This document shows positions 2,313 through 58,416 of a stretch of DNA of 64,000 nucleotides, piece after piece. The translations under genes were made by a program, and so were the position numbers. Source of the DNA: Candidatus Enterousia sp. (GTDB lineage Bacteria; Pseudomonadota; Alphaproteobacteria; Rs-D84); assembly GCA_045646605.1 (NCBI GenBank), contig JAZRLA010000005.1:11519-75518 (forward strand). Reading direction: 5' to 3'. The stretch's first letter is position 1, and every line of letters begins with the position of its first letter. The notes beneath the pieces are model-generated. The model was not told the DNA's origin, made no database searches, and saw only the letters and a list, made by a program, of their open reading frames with translations.

Positions 2313-4922
2313 TTACTTCAACTTGCCGCAACAATGTTTGTATTTTAATCCAGAACCACACGGGCAGGGCGCATTTCGCCGCGCTTCACCCGCGGTGTTT
2401 AACGCCTGGTCATGCTCTGCGCGTTGTTTTTCGGTCGCATCCACATCCGCCCGCGTCAGTTCCATACGCGAAATATACGCAACAGACATAATTTTGAAAT
2501 TATTTATTGTGTTTTTAAATATCCCCAACGCTTCACGCTTGTATTCATAAAGCGGATTTTTTTGCGCATAACCGCGCAGTCCAATTCCGGTCTGCAAATA
2601 ATCCATCTGCTGTAAATGTTGTTTCCAAACCGAATCAAGCGCGCCCAGCATCATTTGACGCGTCGCCGTCTGCATCATGTCGGGGCCATATTTTTCGGCC
2701 TGTTGATTATACCGCTGCATTGCAAGTTGCAACAAGGTTTCATATGCCTTACGTTCATTGATATTTTCATCGGTTTTCCAACTTTCGATATCCGTAATAT
2801 CCAATGCAAACACACGCACCATTGCATCATGCAGTCCCCGTATATTCCAATCGGCCGGCAAAGTTTTTTCCGGAATATTATTTTCACAGATTATTTCGAC
2901 AACGTCACCTATCATTTCGTGTGCCAGTCCCGACAAATCTTTCGATGTCATCAAATCATCACGCTGTTTATAGACAACACCACGTTGCTCGTTCATAACA
3001 TCATCGTATTTCAGCAATTCTTTGCGCGCCTCAAAATACCGGGCCTCGACACGTTTTTGCGCCTTTTCCAACGCCTTGGTTATCCACGGATGCGTAATCG
3101 CCTCGCCCTCTTTAAGGCCAAGCGTGGTAAGCATACCACTTAAACGACTTGCGCCAAAAATCCGCATTAAATCATCATCCAATGCCAAGAAAAACTTTGA
3201 ATCACCGGGATCGCCCTGACGTCCACTGCGTCCACGCAATTGGTTATCAATACGACGTGATTCATGCCGTTCGGTACCAATAACATACAAACCGCCCGCA
3301 TCCAGAACAATTTTTTTGTTCTGTTCAATCGTATCGTAAATCTCTTTCTTTTTTTGCTCATAATCCGGCGCATCTTTATCCAAATCAGCAATCAAATCTT
3401 CGGCGTTTCCACCAAGTTTAATATCCGTTCCACGACCCGCCATATTTGTTGCAATCGTCACCGCACCCGGCGCACCGGCCTGGGCAACAATCTTTGCCTC
3501 TGATTCATGATGTTTTGCATTTAACACCGCCGGATTTATATTTAACTTCTTGCGCACAATTTCCGCCAACTCTTCGGATTTTTCAATTGAAACAGTCCCG
3601 ACCAAAACCGGCTGTTTTCGTTTAAGACAATCGTCTATCTGATTGATAATAGCGTTATATTTTTCCTGTTTGTTTCTATAAATTTCATCATGATGGTCCA
3701 CACGTGCAACCGGCCGGTTTGTTGGAATCGACACAACACGCAACTTATAAATTTCTTCAAATTCGGCGGCTTCGGTCATCGCGGTTCCGGTCATCCCGGC
3801 AAGCGTTTCATAAAGCCGGAACAGGTTTTGGTACGAAATACTGGACACCGTTTGATTTTCTGGTTGCACCGTAACATGCTCTTTGGCCTCTATCGCCTGA
3901 TGCAGACCGCGTCCAAACCGTCGTCCGGTCATAACACGTCCTGTAAATTCATCAACGATTAAAACCTCACCATTTCTAACCACATAATTCACATTTTTCT
4001 GAAACAAATGATGCGCAAGTAACGATTGTTGCACATGCATAACAACGGCGGCATTTTCCGGTGCATAAAGGTTGTCACCCACAAGAAGCCCCGCATCAGC
4101 CAATAAACGCGTCACCGAATCCACACCAACCTCGGTCAATGTCACATGCCGATCTTTTTCATCTTTTTTGTAATCATCCGGTGCAAGTTTCGCAACAACC
4201 GCATCAACCCGATTGTAAAGATCGCTAATATCTTCGGACGGACCAGAAATGATAAGTGGTGTGCGTGCTTCATCAATCAAAATACTATCAACTTCGTCAA
4301 CAATACCAAAAAACAACGGTCGCAAAACCTGTTGATTCTTGGAAAATTTCATATTATCACGCAGGTAATCAAACCCAAGTTCGGAATTTGTGACATACGT
4401 TATATCACACGCATACGCGGCACGCCGTTCATCGTCGGTCATATCATGTTGAATAATTCCAACAGACAATCCCAAAAATTCATACACACGCCCCATCCAT
4501 TTTGCATCACGCGACGCCAAATAATCGTTCACCGTAATAAGGTGTGCACCACGTCCATGCAGTGCTTTTAGATACAACGCCAATGTCGCAACCAGTGTTT
4601 TACCTTCACCAGTTTTCATTTCGGCAATTTGACCATTATTCAAAACCATACCACCAATTAATTGCACATCAAAATGGCGCAGACCAATGGACCGCTTGGC
4701 TGCTTCGCGCACCAATGCGAATGCATCAGGCAAAACATTTTTTTCTTTTTCGCCACTTTGTAACCGCGCACGCAACGCATCCGTTTGCGCCCGCAATTCG
4801 TCATCCGTCATACCACAGTATTTCGGTTCCAAATCGTTAATCAACGATACCGTTTTGCCATAAGATTTTACCAATCGGTCATTCGCCGACCCCAATATTT
4901 TTTGAATAATATTCATAGCCAT
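2313..4922 (-). CDS. secA: Preprotein translocase ATPase SecA
   Basis: 869-aa ORF. It has the N-terminal MAMNIIQKILGSANDRLVKSY, the DEAD-like motor motif MKTGEGKTLVATL and DEVDSILIDEARTPLIISG, and the C-terminal zinc motif CPCGSGLKYKHCCG. Confidence 0.97.
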   Translation of the reverse strand: MAMNIIQKILGSANDRLVKSYGKTVSLINDLEPKYCGMTDDELRAQTDALRARLQSGEKEKNVLPDAFALVREAAKRSIGLRHFDVQLIGGMVLNNGQIAEMKTGEGKTLVATLALYLKALHGRGAHLITVNDYLASRDAKWMGRVYEFLGLSVGIIQHDMTDDERRAAYACDITYVTNSELGFDYLRDNMKFSKNQQVLRPLFFGIVDEVDSILIDEARTPLIISGPSEDISDLYNRVDAVVAKLAPDDYKKDEKDRHVTLTEVGVDSVTRLLADAGLLVGDNLYAPENAAVVMHVQQSLLAHHLFQKNVNYVVRNGEVLIVDEFTGRVMTGRRFGRGLHQAIEAKEHVTVQPENQTVSSISYQNLFRLYETLAGMTGTAMTEAAEFEEIYKLRVVSIPTNRPVARVDHHDEIYRNKQEKYNAIINQIDDCLKRKQPVLVGTVSIEKSEELAEIVRKKLNINPAVLNAKHHESEAKIVAQAGAPGAVTIATNMAGRGTDIKLGGNAEDLIADLDKDAPDYEQKKKEIYDTIEQNKKIVLDAGGLYVIGTERHESRRIDNQLRGRSGRQGDPGDSKFFLALDDDLMRIFGASRLSGMLTTLGLKEGEAITHPWITKALEKAQKRVEARYFEARKELLKYDDVMNEQRGVVYKQRDDLMTSKDLSGLAHEMIGDVVEIICENNIPEKTLPADWNIRGLHDAMVRVFALDITDIESWKTDENINERKAYETLLQLAMQRYNQQAEKYGPDMMQTATRQMMLGALDSVWKQHLQQMDYLQTGIGLRGYAQKNPLYEYKREALGIFKNTINNFKIMSVAYISRMELTRADVDATEKQRAEHDQALNTAGEARRNAPCPCGSGLKYKHCCGKLK

Positions 4923-15832: not shown

Positions 15833-16014
15833 AGTTCCCCTTCACTGTGTGAAGGGGGGGACCGGCGAAAACCGGTATCCCGTACTTTCAACCGTAACGG
15901 CAAGATCCCGCGTTACCGCGGGATGACGGAAAGGAAACAACGGACACATCCGCGCCCGTACTAACACCACCAGTTCCCCTCCTGTGGAGGGGTGGCCGAA
16001 GGCCGGGGTGGTCT
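15833..16014. repeat. Composite of GC-rich hairpin modules
   Basis: In order: GTTCCCCTTCACTGTGTGAAGGGG hairpin, ACCGGCGAAAACCGGTATC, AGATCCCGCGTTACCGCGGGATGACGG, a CTAACACCACC arm, then GTTCCCCTCCTGTGGAGGGGTGGCCGAAGGCCGGGGTGGTCT (15973-16014), which abuts the tolA stop codon. The same modules recur at 5334, 24516, 27899, 39785 and 58333. Confidence 0.75.
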
Positions 16015-24450: not shown

Positions 24451-24646
24451 GGAAAGTGTTAGTCCGGCATGACCGCGACGCGGTCATGCCGCGACGGGTG
24501 GTTAGTAAAGAATCCGTCATACCGGCGAAAGCCGGTATCTCCCCGTCACAATTGAAACCACAAGATTCCGCGTTTCCGCGGAATGACGGCACATTTTTGT
24601 GGGGCCCGGTACCGCAGGGTGACGACACTAACCACTAACACTTTCC
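24451..24646. repeat. MITE-like composite repeat bounded by 13-nt inverted termini
   Basis: GGAAAGTGTTAGT (24451-24463) is the reverse complement of ACTAACACTTTCC (24634-24646). The interior contains the CATGACCGCG-ac-GCGGTCATG hairpin, GTCATACCGGCGAAAGCCGGTATC, and GATTCCGCGTTTCCGCGGAATGACGG. Confidence 0.8.
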
Positions 24647-27068: not shown

Positions 27069-27154
27069 AAAACATTTATGTTTTGTAAAAAGCTCAAATA
27101 ATCCGTTATACCCACGATAAAATTAAAATCGGCACACGGCCGATTTGAATTTTA

Positions 27155-27231
27155 TGGTCGGGGCGACAGGAATCGAACCTGCGACCCCTTGCACCCCATG
27201 CAAGTACTCTACCAGGCTGAGCTACGCCCCG
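27155..27231 (-). tRNA. tRNA-Pro (anticodon GGG), CCA encoded
   Basis: Manual cloverleaf: CGGGGCG-TA-GCTC-AGCCTGGTA-GAGT-A-CTTGC-ATGGGGT-GCAAG-GGGTC-GCAGG-TTCGATT-CCTGT-CGCCCCG-A-CCA. Confidence 0.92.
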
Positions 27232-27238
27232 ACGACAA

Positions 27239-27612
27239 ATAATATATTAAAGCAATACACTTTTAATTACAAATATTTTTTTTGAAAATCTCTGCCGGCG
27301 TGCGTTTTTAAATATTTTTCAAAGTTTTCCGCTTTTTTTTGCGTGTCAAATGCAAAATACGATACAATTCGCCACGGTTTATATTTATTCGTGTGTCGGC
27401 ATGTGCCATTGTTATGTTCACGAAATCGCAACTTTAGATTATTCGTGTAACCAACATAAAAATGTTCTGGCGAATTTACACTTTGTAAAATATAGACATA
27501 AAACATTACTTGTCCGTCTCCGCTAACGCTACGCCGAGACGCTCCGTTTCGTCCGCGCCCTTCGGCAAAAAACCTCGGTCGCGGCGGTTGCTATGGCAAC
27601 CGACGGAACGGG
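27239..27612 (-). mobile_element. Candidate GIY-YIG cassette (unique segment between two 65-nt direct repeats derived from tRNA-Pro)
   Basis: The direct repeats at 27174-27238 and 27613-27677 read identical by eye. The 374 nt between them carry the GIY-YIG ORF and a structured segment of about 106 nt. Confidence 0.45.
27267..27506 (-). CDS. Stand-alone GIY-YIG nuclease domain protein (79 aa, COG2827/UPF0213-like)
   Basis: MFYVYILQSVNSPEHFYVGYTNNLKLRFREHNNG...KPW...KKAENFEKYLK matches the GIY-(x10)-YIG...R..eH..g...E pattern. A GGAGA RBS lies 10 nt upstream. Confidence 0.85.
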   Translation of the reverse strand: MFYVYILQSVNSPEHFYVGYTNNLKLRFREHNNGTCRHTNKYKPWRIVSYFAFDTQKKAENFEKYLKTHAGRDFQKKYL

Positions 27613-27670
27613 CGAACCTGCGACCCCTTGCACCCCATGCAAGTACTCTACCAGGCTGAGCTACGCCCCG
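27613..27670 (-). pseudogene. Truncated copy of tRNA-Pro(GGG), tRNA positions 1-58
   Basis: Identical to nt 1-58 of the intact gene (5' acceptor strand through TTCG of the T-loop), after which the sequence diverges. It lacks the 3' T-stem and acceptor strand. Confidence 0.85.
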
Positions 27671-27682
27671 ACGACAACCGTC

Positions 27683-27711
27683 ATAATAATATAAACTTTC
27701 GCAATTTGCAA
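27683..27711 (-). promoter_or_regulatory. Sigma70-type promoter upstream of the truncated tRNA-Pro copy
   Basis: On the minus strand: TTGCAA (27711-27706), a 17-nt spacer, then TATTAT (27688-27683), about 12 nt upstream of the tRNA 5' end. These are the same hexamers as in the rnpB promoter. Confidence 0.5.
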
Positions 27712-27769
27712 ACAGATAAATCGAACCGTTATACACTAATTCGATGATGGAAAAAATTTCCAGAGAACC

Positions 27770-27927
27770 GTCACACCGCTGAAGAGCGGTGCCCAGGCCG
27801 AACGGAGTGAGGACTTGCCCCGCAGGGAGTCTGAAACACAAGTTCAGAATAACAATTTATTTGATGTCTGCGACGCAAGTTTTTGCATTCGCAAAAACTG
27901 GATCCCGCGCTTTTCCGCGGGATGACG
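27770..27927. repeat. ~155-nt composite hairpin repeat, copy 1 of 2
   Basis: Shares GTCACACCGCTGAAGAGCGGTGCCCAG, CTTGCCCCGCAGGGA, TGTCTGCGACGCA, TTCGCAAA and GAT(n)CCCG...CGGGATGACG blocks, in the same order, with 58210-58359. Confidence 0.8.
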
Positions 27928-27950
27928 ACATTGTGAAACATGCACGCATA

Positions 27951-27976
27951 AAAAAACCGCCGAAGCGGTTTTCTTT
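27951..27976 (-). terminator. Rho-independent terminator downstream of the His-rich protein gene
   Basis: AAACCGC-CGAA-GCGGTTT hairpin flanked by an A-run and a T-run, adjacent to the stop codon at 27977-27979. Confidence 0.65.
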
Positions 27977-28270
27977 TTATATTATTGCCGATAGTAATAT
28001 TGCCGTTGCAACAATCCAATCACCCGCACGAACACCATGGTGATGATGGTGGTGATGATGGTGCGATACATGAACCGGCGTCGGGGCAGGGTGCACATTA
28101 TGATGCGTCACATGATGGCCACCATGTCTTGGCGCACTGTGCGTATGTGTCACAAATTGCCGTTGCGCATGATGATTTCCACCGCCGCGATTCGGTGCCG
28201 CATTCGCCGACCCAATGCACAACGCCGCCGCAACCGCCACAGATGTAAGGAATAGATTTGTTTTTTTCAT
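27977..28270 (-). CDS. Secreted histidine-rich small protein (97 aa)
   Basis: The start is taken at MKKTNLFLTSVAVAAALCIGSANA (ATG at 28270, with an AAGGAGA RBS). About one third of the mature part is His, including a run of nine. The tail is hydrophobic (DWIVATAILLSAII). Confidence 0.7.
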   Translation of the reverse strand: MKKTNLFLTSVAVAAALCIGSANAAPNRGGGNHHAQRQFVTHTHSAPRHGGHHVTHHNVHPAPTPVHVSHHHHHHHHHGVRAGDWIVATAILLSAII

Positions 28271-28437
28271 GTTTATCTCCTTTGGTTCAAATTTATTATA
28301 TAATATAATGATTATAAAAATCAACAATTATTTTTATAAACCAAATTTCGTAAACTTTATTGAATTTTATGCTTGCACGAATCGGGAAAAAGTTTCTATA
28401 TTCACATATCAAATTTGCAAACAAGGGAGGAAACCTT

Positions 28438-39275: not shown

Positions 39276-39430
39276 ATATAATTTGTTATCTAAGATTTTT
39301 GCCCGTCTCCGTTTGCATTACAAACCCCGCCACGGCACTGTCCGCCTACGCTGGTGCTTAATTTTGGTTAATGAATTATGCGTCTTTGATGAATTATTTT
39401 CGATATACGTGCGCGCTACGGCGAGACACT

Positions 39431-39826: not shown

Positions 39827-39907
39827 TCCTGCCCGTCTACGTGCGCGTTGCGCACTCCGCCGCGGCACTCAAATTTCTTAATTCGCAAAGCGAATAACGA
39901 AATTTGG

Positions 39908-50201: not shown

Positions 50202-50276
50202 TTACTAACCACTAGCCACTAACACCAAGCCGGGGCAAAGCCTCGGCGCAGTCGCGCCGTAGCCTTGGCGAAGGCG
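50202..50276. repeat. Stop-rich arm plus three short GC hairpins
   Basis: TTACTAACCACTAGCCACTAACACC, then GCCGGGGC-AAA-GCCTCGGC, GGCGC-AGTC-GCGCC and GCCTT-GGCG-AAGGC. Confidence 0.7.
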
Positions 50277-50281
50277 GATAA

Positions 50282-58015: not shown

Positions 58016-58209
58016 GGCGTTTTTAACCAAATTTTAAAGCACACACAACAAAAAAACACTCCGAAAGCCGCAGAAAACCGGCTTTTTTCGTGTTTTGCGC
58101 CCAAAAATAGGGCAAAATAGGGCCATTTTCACGCTTTTTCAGAATAATATTGCCGTCATACCCCACGATGTTACCAAATTCGATGACAGAAAACTTATTC
58201 CAGAAAGAC

Positions 58210-58359
58210 GTCACACCGCTGAAGAGCGGTGCCCAGACCGAGCGTAAGCAAGGGCTTGCCCCGCAGGGAATTTTTCATTTAAAAATTTGGGTGTCTGCGA
58301 CGCAGTCGCGGCATTTGCTTCGCAAAGCCGGATAGATCCCGGCCTTCGCCGGGATGACG
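58210..58359. repeat. ~155-nt composite hairpin repeat, copy 2 of 2
   Basis: Same ordered blocks as 27770-27927. The first 27 nt (GTCACACCGCTGAAGAGCGGTGCCCAG) are identical. Confidence 0.8.
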
Positions 58360-58416
58360 CGACCTCTGGAAATCATCGCATTATTACGGTAATCTTGTCA
58401 TCGAATTTAGTAACAG

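Follow-up and report, generated by a model that had tools for sequence, protein, structure and literature searches.

Ssn proteins are single-domain GIY-YIG nucleases of ~94 amino acids (aa) in which Y6, Y17 and E64 are essential (PMC11893778). Only single-stranded DNA (ssDNA) is bound, at a hairpin repeat termed NTS/SRM, and the cut is made a few bases 5' of the hairpin (PMC11893778). Their genes are typically flanked by NTS/SRM repeats, as was found for 71% of the ssnA homologues, and the arrangement NTS-ssnA-NTS was noted by the authors to resemble an insertion sequence (Chenal et al. 2025, PMC11893778). SsnA also has a role at the level of the host, as it modulates recombination or transformation in Neisseria (PMC11893778). 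Here, a gene for a 79-aa GIY-YIG protein is described which lies between a 5' fragment of tRNA-Pro(GGG) and an intact tRNA-Pro(GGG) gene of Candidatus Enterousia sp. The stretch analysed, called the window in the following, comprises 64,000 nucleotides (nt) of JAZRLA010000005.1; coordinates are positions in this window unless a locus label (L number) is given. Insert-free alleles of the tRNA gene exist in close relatives, and homologues of the protein are encoded almost always next to tRNA or transfer-messenger RNA (tmRNA) genes. The locus probably belongs to a large family of selfish mini-elements which encode only a nuclease and live in such genes.

By architecture, Ssn is the closest described system. 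Like N. meningitidis SsnA (cd10448), the cassette protein is a bare GIY-YIG domain (~80-95 aa) without a DNA-binding domain, and the essential Y6, Y17 and E64 of SsnA correspond to Y5, Y17 and E63. The genes in the window and in two syntenic loci (L001, L002) are flanked by NTS-like hairpin repeats, and both groups occur in alphaproteobacterial symbionts and in Sphingomonas. In contrast to the Ssn system, for which tRNA is not mentioned anywhere in PMC11893778, the cassettes show T-loop breakpoints, tRNA-arm duplications and a conserved leader, and the canonical SRM was present in just 6 of 80 homologue loci, compared to 71% for ssnA homologues. Neisseria was not found among the best 120 of at least 7936 profile matches. 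Membership of the cassette protein in the Ssn family is plausible, the comparison with SsnA being based on its published description.

The GIY-YIG endonucleases SegB and I-TevI of phage T4 share the catalytic domain and are selfish genes spread by host repair; in addition, SegB acts in a tRNA gene region (PMC2330249). Seg proteins and I-TevI are two-domain enzymes with a C-terminal DNA-binding module, whereas the cassette protein is the bare 79-aa domain. The cassette elements further differ from T4 homing endonuclease genes in being chromosomal, in duplicating part of the target and in leaving the tRNA intact. With homing endonuclease genes as a class they have in common that occupied and empty alleles exist at the same site and that the element is younger than its flanks. 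Genomic islands and prophages of tyrosine integrases are also inserted in T-loops or anticodon loops, and tmRNA genes are used as well (10.1101/2022.07.05.498093). In both systems, the tRNA is restored by an element-borne copy and the displaced tRNA fragment is left as a direct repeat. However, the cassette unit has only ~0.4 kb and encodes no integrase, and integrase islands duplicate the 3' part of the tRNA, whereas the form in the window duplicates the 5' part. Finally, the HDV-like theta ribozymes next to tRNAs of gut phages (PMC10879173) are likewise structured RNAs starting exactly at a tRNA 3' end. Their cleavage site has a G1, in contrast to the cassette leader, which begins with U or C and matches no ribozyme family.

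Occupied and empty tRNA-Pro(GGG) loci

All parts of the cassette locus are on the minus strand. The native promoter-like site of the tRNA-Pro gene (TTGCAA-N17-TATTAT, 27711-27683) was recovered by promoter scan with a score of 9/12 and now precedes the tRNA 5' fragment, leader and open reading frame (ORF). The first repeat copy (27613-27677) starts with 7 nt of tRNA leader, continues with tRNA-Pro bases 1-58 and forms a 3'-truncated pseudo-tRNA. A GC-rich structured leader of 106 nt, delimited from the sequence (27507-27612, B-type variant, see below), separates it from the 79-aa single-domain GIY-YIG nuclease gene (27267-27506; Pfam PF01541, E value 2.2e-15). An element-borne spacer of 28 nt (27239-27266) follows and contains a second promoter-like site before the intact tRNA (TTAAAA-N16-TATTAT, promoter scan, 9/12), the -35 box of which overlaps the ORF stop codon. 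The second repeat copy (27174-27238) runs into the intact tRNA-Pro(GGG) at 27155-27231 (whole segment 27155-27238), and an intrinsic terminator was found after the tRNA by terminator scan (27126-27146).

ARAGORN called tRNA-Pro(GGG) at 27155-27231 on the minus strand and left the upstream copy uncalled. The Rfam tRNA model gave 59.7 bits for the intact copy and 25.7 bits for the upstream copy (27603-27670), which is under the gathering score of 29. The direct repeats 27174-27238 and 27613-27677 are identical over all 65 nt (100%, BLAST E value 9e-29). The fragment ends at 27613, i.e., at the G of the T-loop GGTTCG, which is the 58th base of the 77-nt tRNA and canonical position 57. Within the window, the GIY-YIG ORF is present in a single copy (BLAST). 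A first-pass annotation made from the letters of the DNA had described this promoter, identical 65-nt repeats, a tRNA 5' fragment breaking after the TTCG of the T-loop, hairpins in a segment of ~106 nt, the GIY-YIG ORF and the intact tRNA, and each of these was confirmed at the coordinates given there.

For the empty-site search, the neighbouring acpS gene was used as anchor and 80 related metagenome loci were retrieved. The nearest relatives are metagenome-assembled genomes labelled Candidatus Enterousia or Rickettsiales (gut and rumen Alphaproteobacteria). A tRNA-Pro(GGG) gene is present in 46 of the 80 acpS-anchored loci, and only one of these 46 (L132) has a GIY-YIG gene, which is of the A-type (see below) and lies downstream of the tRNA. 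In L081, promoter, a single tRNA-Pro and terminator follow one another uninterrupted, promoter and terminator being those of the window, and the 375 nt of leader, ORF and spacer (27238-27612) are missing according to the alignment. Window positions 27102-27237 correspond to L081 2682-2817 with 98.5% identity, and 27613-27721 to L081 2754-2862 with 93.6% identity. Both blocks overlap in L081 across its single tRNA; hence, the window differs from the empty site by a 375-nt insertion and an extra copy of the 65-nt segment.

The loci L001 and L002 are syntenic with the window and occupied. The flanks of L001 are 97% identical to those of the empty L081 over 2.2 kb, and L001 2896-3270 is missing from L081. 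Close relatives are thus cleanly polymorphic for the presence of the insert, and the comparison of empty and occupied sites that had been proposed in the first-pass annotation yielded both kinds of allele.

Synonymous divergence (dS) between the window and L001 is 0.20 for the cassette ORF, compared to 0.65 for a His-rich gene, 0.89 for acpS, 1.49 for a 758-aa gene and 1.81 for a 786-aa gene, so that the value of the cassette is 3-9x below those of the flanking genes. Leader, ORF and spacer are 96-97% identical between both loci, a neighbouring gene about 84%, and the DNA just past the tRNA is unalignable. Divergence and identity values therefore indicate that the common ancestor of the cassettes is more recent than that of the genomes carrying them. 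A comparable picture was obtained for a group of elements at tRNA-Thr, in which tRNA and element are 91-99% identical and the flanks are unalignable or inverted.

The orientation of these blocks varies as well. Among close relatives (L081-L160), the tRNA gene can point either way with respect to the same neighbours, whether or not it carries an element. For instance, tRNA-Pro is on the minus strand in L081 and on the plus strand in L083, and the AcpS of both is 98% identical to that of the window. In the comparison set L009, L010 and L019, a tRNA-Thr-element block of ~550 nt is flipped between L009 and L010.

Family-wide linkage to tRNA and tmRNA genes

A family scan was performed with one genome per GTDB species; 212 relatives were found and 80 loci were kept. 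A tRNA or tmRNA gene is the direct neighbour on the same strand in 66 of the 80 homologue loci. The distance between the end of an upstream tRNA or tmRNA gene on the same strand and the start codon is ≤ 260 nt in 59 loci, with 80-190 nt as the usual range, and in 12 loci a tRNA or tmRNA starts ≤ 120 nt downstream. The partner genes comprise 26 isoacceptors and tmRNA. It had been proposed at first pass to check whether other copies of the ORF are flanked by duplications of parts of tRNA or other genes, and they are indeed almost always joined to tRNA genes and to partial tRNA duplications. As negative control, 33 distant viral GIY-YIG relatives were examined, none of which has a tRNA within 1.5 kb.

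Hosts of the family are Alphaproteobacteria (including a complete Sphingomonas genome), Gammaproteobacteria, Cloacimonadota, Marinimicrobia, Kiritimatiellia, Clostridia and several Patescibacteria. Several genomes harbor two or three copies, and a profile search gave at least 7936 protein clusters at an E value ≤ 1e-6. Relatives on viral contigs are distant only (≤ 51% identity), and the plasmid search gave no match at 1e-8. No literature linking GIY-YIG genes to insertion in bacterial tRNA genes was found, although coverage was incomplete and absence is unproven. The family of tRNA/tmRNA-gene mini-elements is large, widespread and apparently undescribed.

Single members illustrate the range of contexts. 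In Sphingomonas sp. MS122 (L055; NZ_CP186695.1, 888713-894949), an 80-aa member lies between tRNA-Tyr(GTA) and tRNA-Gly(TCC) with gaps of 54 and 57 nt on either side of the ORF. This is a cultured organism with a complete genome and thus a handy experimental system. In L047, L056 and L069, members directly follow tmRNA genes and the leader begins at the tmRNA 3' end; L047 is a tandem array of three leader copies and two ORFs.

Two arrangements were distinguished. In the common A-type, an intact tRNA is directly followed by leader and ORF; downstream, there is a variable tail, after which many loci have the tRNA 3' part once more, followed by the original terminator. In seven loci representing four tRNA types (His in three loci, Glu, Phe in two loci and Gly), this 3' copy comprises exactly the last 19 nt of the tRNA and begins right after the TTCG of the T-loop. 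In the rarer B-type, which is the form of the window, the tRNA 5' part is duplicated, ends at TTCG and is followed by CCCGT and the leader. B-type elements were found at Pro(GGG) in the window, L001, L002, L007, L194 and L200, at Val(TAC) in L004 and at Pro(CGG) in L005, L006 and L008. The statement of the first-pass annotation that the duplicated part is the 5' part of the tRNA applies to the window; as a family rule it does not hold, as in most members the element follows an intact tRNA and the tRNA 3' part is the one duplicated.

The B-type 5' fragments end at GTTCG in the T-loops of Pro(GGG) and Val(TAC). The T-loop breakpoint of the partial duplications is TTCG|A. The Pro(CGG) fragment has 36 nt and is broken in the anticodon loop TTCGGGA, which is also a 7-nt loop beginning with TTCG. 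Breaks in both loops suggest that the position of the join is set by a hairpin loop TTCG|NNN. tRNAs and tmRNA have the T-arm and the acceptor end in common, and the use of both gene types fits a target in that part of the gene.

The extent of the inserted unit can be derived from L194 and L200, the proteins of which are 80% and 73% identical to that of the window and which have different genomic contexts. Here, the repeat unit starts 17 nt before the ORF end and extends through the spacer to base 57 of the tRNA; nothing element-like was found further upstream of it. A pure target-site duplication was rejected, as it fails for these two loci. B-type spacers are related in sequence between elements, whereas the native promoters differ. 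Judged from these sequences, the simplest reading would be an inserted unit of leader-ORF-spacer-tRNA(1-57) placed at position 57/58; by symmetry, the A-type unit would be tRNA(58-76)-leader-ORF-tail.

Tandem arrays occur in L042, L047, L053 and L058, which fits the complete T-loop that remains after insertion. Remnants without ORF are common, for example a truncated leader after tRNA-Pro in L083, and extra tRNA 3' fragments are present in L081, L085, L086, L088 and L148. Two such ORF-less A-type remnants were also found in the window on the minus strand. One lies downstream of tRNA-Leu(CAG) (39833-39864; BLAST match to positions 80-111 of the L034 leader, 87.5%), and the other, a leader 3' end (GGAGACGGGCAAAAAT), downstream of tRNA-Val(CAC) (39295-39313; BLAST match to positions 99-117 of the L039 leader, 94.7%). 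The T-loops of tRNA-Leu(CAG) and tRNA-Val(CAC) have TTCG, and two neighbouring tRNAs (TTCA and TTTG) are without remnants. A leader-like 5' segment (ATCCGCCTTCGCCAAGGCTACGGCGCGA) at 50252-50279 (minus strand) directly follows the stop codon of a protein gene, with a terminator behind it. This match is borderline (E value 0.001) and no tRNA is nearby.

Nuclease, structured leader and hairpin repeats

The protein was assigned to the GIY-YIG nuclease superfamily by its domain, by the catalytic Tyr, Tyr, Arg and Glu and by the predicted fold. Y5, Y17, G19, T21, R27, H31, P44, E63, L66 and K67 are invariant in 33 homologues. The AlphaFold2 model has a predicted local distance difference test score (pLDDT) of 95, with strands at 2-9, 16-21 and 45-53. 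Best matches by sequence and fold are UPF0213/YhbQ (COG2827) and SLX1. Sequence searches of the PDB gave 1zg2 (UPF0213 protein BH0048, E value 9e-6) and SLX1 (about 5e-4), and Foldseek with the AlphaFold2 model gave At-HIGLE, SLX1 and 1zg2 with a probability of 1.0 and query-normalised template modelling scores (TM-scores) of 0.54-0.75. Seg or I-TevI structures were not among the sequence or fold matches in the PDB. Sequence and model thus indicate an SLX1/UPF0213-like rather than a Seg/I-TevI-like protein. The catalytic domain fills all 79 aa, which leaves no room for a C-terminal DNA-binding module. The protein is not a homing endonuclease of the Seg/I-TevI type, of which SegB had been cited in the first-pass annotation, but a bare domain with UPF0213 and SLX1 as nearest solved relatives.

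SLX1, unlike the cassette protein, contains a RING domain and needs SLX4, and for UPF0213 genes, unlike the cassette, neither mobility nor a junction with tRNA genes is known (PMC1564403). Scans with the NCBIfam and PADLOC libraries gave no match for the protein, and PHROGs only a generic endonuclease family. The ratio of non-synonymous to synonymous substitution rates (dN/dS) of the ORF is 0.03-0.18 compared to eight relatives; hence, the ORF is under purifying selection.

The leader of the window has a minimum free energy of -47.9 kcal/mol (z = -2.1 compared to shuffled sequences). On the minus strand, it begins with CCCGT (27612-27608), followed by S1a (TCCGTC, 27607-27602), the hairpin GGTTGC-CATA-GCAACC (27601-27586), S2a (CCGAGG, 27578-27573), the central motif ACGGAGCG (27547-27540), S2b (TCTCGG, 27539-27534) and S1b (GACGGA, 27518-27513), which is shortly before the ATG. 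At an E value ≤ 1, Rfam matched only the tRNA and its fragment in 27155-27711, and no leader match was obtained in 11 homologue loci. An HDV-like or theta ribozyme was considered for the leader and dropped, as no covariance model matched and the first base is U or C instead of G1. RNAalifold predicted 19 pairs for seven B-type leaders, five of them with compensatory changes.

S1 and S2 form two nested helices which covary in 23 A-type leaders of Alphaproteobacteria. In S1, the 10 nt after the tRNA CCA pair with the 10 nt just before the start-codon region, and the pair types at variable positions include TA/CG at positions 8, 9 and 12. In S2, the 10 nt before the TT junction pair with the 10 nt after the conserved ACGGAWG motif, and five positions have two or three pair types. 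The fraction paired is 0.926 for S1 and 0.878 for S2, compared to 0.872 and 0.668 after shuffling of partners; the observed values were reached by 0 of 2000 shuffles. An alignment-free duplex-energy test of own against cross-paired leaders (-16.4 vs -14.1 kcal/mol) separated poorly, because all leaders share CTTCGC/GCGAAG, and column-wise covariation was used instead. The long-range helix recurs in Patescibacteria and other phyla, where it is made of other sequences (CCACTTCGC/GCGAAGTGG, CATTCTTCGCT/AGCGAAGAATG) and takes in the tRNA's own CA or CCA. The matching helix of the B-type takes in the CG of the T-loop TTCG, and S2 of L006 shows a double compensatory change from GCCGAG/CTCGGC to GCCGCG/CGCGGC.

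The 5' strand of the leader has two alternative partners, either the central ACGGA motif or the copy beside the ATG, and looks like a switch. As the leader is predicted to pair with tRNA-derived bases and with the start region, we infer that it would make translation of the nuclease mRNA, or its processing, dependent on the tRNA transcript; it may also act as ssDNA. The nuclease ORF had been described at first pass as standing downstream of the tRNA promoter, which agrees with the promoter scan. A scan found no terminator-like site between the promoter at 27711-27683 and the tRNA terminator at 27146-27126, and for this reason a precursor of fragment, leader, ORF and tRNA appears plausible. The additional suggestion that the intact tRNA may have lost its -35 element and may depend on read-through was not borne out. 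The promoter-like site of the spacer scores the same as the upstream promoter, and L001 has TTGAAA-N16-TATTAT at this place; thus, the intact tRNA need not depend on read-through.

SRM hairpins were searched with the regular expression from PMC11893778. The window contains seven matches, compared to 0.07 in shuffled sequences, and two of them are within about 420 nt of the ORF. Both are located in an insert of ~215 nt just upstream of the promoter (27722-27936, no strand assigned; alignment to L081), which carries SRM/NTS-like hairpins at 27769-27796 (plus strand) and 27898-27927 (minus strand) and is replaced by 31 nt in L081. The evidence linking this insert to the cassette is circumstantial. 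SRM-like hairpins are found on both sides of the tRNA block in L001 and L002, and none were found in the stretches examined of the cassette-free relatives L081-L088. The canonical SRM pattern did not match the leader or the T-arm.

In L001, copies of a repeat of ~80 nt containing an SRM (2670-2750 and 3355-3440) flank the block of promoter, fragment, cassette and tRNA. They include an exact direct repeat of 28 nt and are missing from L081 despite the 97% identical flanks. Within the window, NTS/SRM-like repeats (CGTCAYCCCGCG...GCGGGATC) occur at 27722-27936, 58177-58360, 15901-15928 and 24515-24588. Two of these are composite elements with a plus and a minus SRM copy about 100 nt apart, similar to BIME or Correia elements. 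Further upstream of the cassette, 27977-28327 (minus strand) encodes a small secreted-looking protein with the N-terminus MKKTNLFLTSVAVAAALCIGSANA, a run of nine His and many other His residues. A weak Rfam match to His_leader at 27947-28055 is probably caused by the His codon run and a terminator.

Proposed mode of insertion, rival explanations and significance

The first-pass annotation had proposed a selfish cassette which entered the T-loop of the tRNA gene, carried the tRNA 5' part along and left the tRNA intact. Empty sites, tRNA-joined copies and the low dS of the cassette speak in favor of this proposal. According to our reading, an element of about 0.35-0.45 kb consists of the structured leader (~100 nt), the 79-aa GIY-YIG gene and an arm copied from the target tRNA. 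It is joined to the tRNA after the TTCG of the 7-nt T-loop, between canonical positions 57 and 58. In the A-type, the tRNA 3' arm (58-76) would form the left side of the element, with an intact tRNA upstream and the displaced 3' piece downstream. In the B-type, the promoter-like spacer and the tRNA 5' arm would form the right side and the rebuilt intact tRNA would follow, while leader and ORF would be driven by the displaced native promoter and 5' piece.

How the element moves is inferred. The nuclease may nick or cut the T-arm hairpin, probably as ssDNA in the heavily transcribed tRNA gene, as would be expected for an Ssn-like enzyme. Host recombination would then copy the element in, with tRNA sequence on both sides as homology arms, either by homing or by Campbell-type integration. 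A unit placed at position 57/58 is what Campbell-type recombination of a circle would produce, and break-induced copying would lead to the same product. The element would be removed precisely if the direct repeats recombined. The leader is predicted to pair with the last tRNA-derived bases and with the region before the start codon.

Several points weigh against a selfish element of this kind. A domain of 79 aa without DNA-binding module does not explain the site specificity unless the protein reads a hairpin in the way of Ssn. An intact T-loop is still present at the occupied locus; hence, the presumed target is not destroyed, unlike in classical homing. Several A-type partner tRNAs have TTCA or TCCG T-loops, and a strict requirement for TTCG in the target T-loop was dropped for this reason. 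The right ends of the A-type vary, which fits homology-driven copying and not a defined transposon end. Furthermore, the dS estimate of the cassette is derived from just 79 codons, and presence and absence could be due to loss via repeat recombination instead of gain.

Alternatively, the ORF could be part of a domesticated operon useful to the host, in which the tRNA linkage serves co-expression and the duplications are by-products. Possible roles of such an operon are the processing of ssDNA at highly transcribed genes or a modulation of recombination or transformation, as for SsnA, which does have a host-level role (PMC11893778). The strong purifying selection on the ORF, the very large family (at least 7936 clusters) and the conserved, regulatory-looking leader structure would be in accordance with a host function, and prokaryotic SLX1-like genes are fused or adjacent to COG4123 (a predicted O-methyltransferase) and to TrmH-type methyltransferases (PMC1564403). 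However, the partner varies by genome among 26 isoacceptors and tmRNA, the gene is present or absent between genomes with 97% identical flanks, and the dS of the cassette is far below that of the flanks. Multiple copies, tandem arrays, many decayed copies and tRNA fragments broken at a fixed point also speak against it, and we consider a host operon unlikely.

Another alternative is mobilisation in trans by a tyrosine integrase. The element would then be a non-autonomous mini-island, with the T-loop and anticodon-loop joins as attachment features and the nuclease as cargo. This would account for breakpoints in the 7-nt T-loop and in the anticodon loop, for the use of tmRNA genes and for the restoration of the tRNA by element-borne sequence. 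T-loop and anticodon loop are reportedly the preferred sublocations of integrase crossover (a finding ascribed to Williams, 2002). Yet the unit of 375-439 nt encodes no integrase (the genomes were not surveyed for a cognate one), its constant content across phyla is leader and nuclease only, and the mirror form with the 5' arm is atypical for integrase islands, so that such an origin seems quite improbable. Hardly any weight is given to a plain local tandem duplication which trapped a housekeeping gene of the COG2827 type, the null explanation of the first-pass annotation. The direct repeat is exact and the protein does resemble UPF0213, but three tRNA genes of different genomes share the join of GTTCG, CCCGT, leader and ORF, empty sites exist and the link to tRNA genes holds across the family. 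Polymorphism, divergence data and the recurrence of the breakpoint agree less well with any of the three rivals than with a selfish mini-element.

A more far-reaching version of the selfish-element reading is put forward tentatively, and we regard it as possible but rather doubtful as a whole. The cassettes might constitute a new class of integrative elements, in which an Ssn-like nuclease specific for hairpins in ssDNA cuts TTCG|A in the T-arm exposed by transcription and, occasionally, a look-alike anticodon loop. The ~0.4-kb unit would be copied in with a 3' or a 5' arm, and the tRNA would always be rebuilt. Pairing of the leader with the CCA (common form) or with the CG of the T-loop (window) could serve as RNA switch or as a guide to the ssDNA target, as in IS200/IS605.

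If the locus is indeed such a selfish mini-element, tRNA and tmRNA genes in many phyla, among them gut Alphaproteobacteria, Sphingomonas, Gammaproteobacteria, Cloacimonadota, Marinimicrobia, Patescibacteria and others, would host a very small and very abundant parasite, the gene of which is so far annotated only as 'GIY-YIG nuclease family protein'. Single-domain GIY-YIG ssDNA nucleases would gain a natural selfish role and a defined natural target, and a hairpin-loop-specific mini nuclease of 79 residues would be of practical interest. The leader is a new structured-RNA candidate which starts exactly at the tRNA 3' end. The family would also account for many stray tRNA fragments and tRNA-proximal rearrangements in metagenome-assembled genomes. 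Moreover, it would represent a second, integrase-free route into a tRNA gene with rebuilding of the tRNA, including a mirror form in which the 5' part is duplicated.

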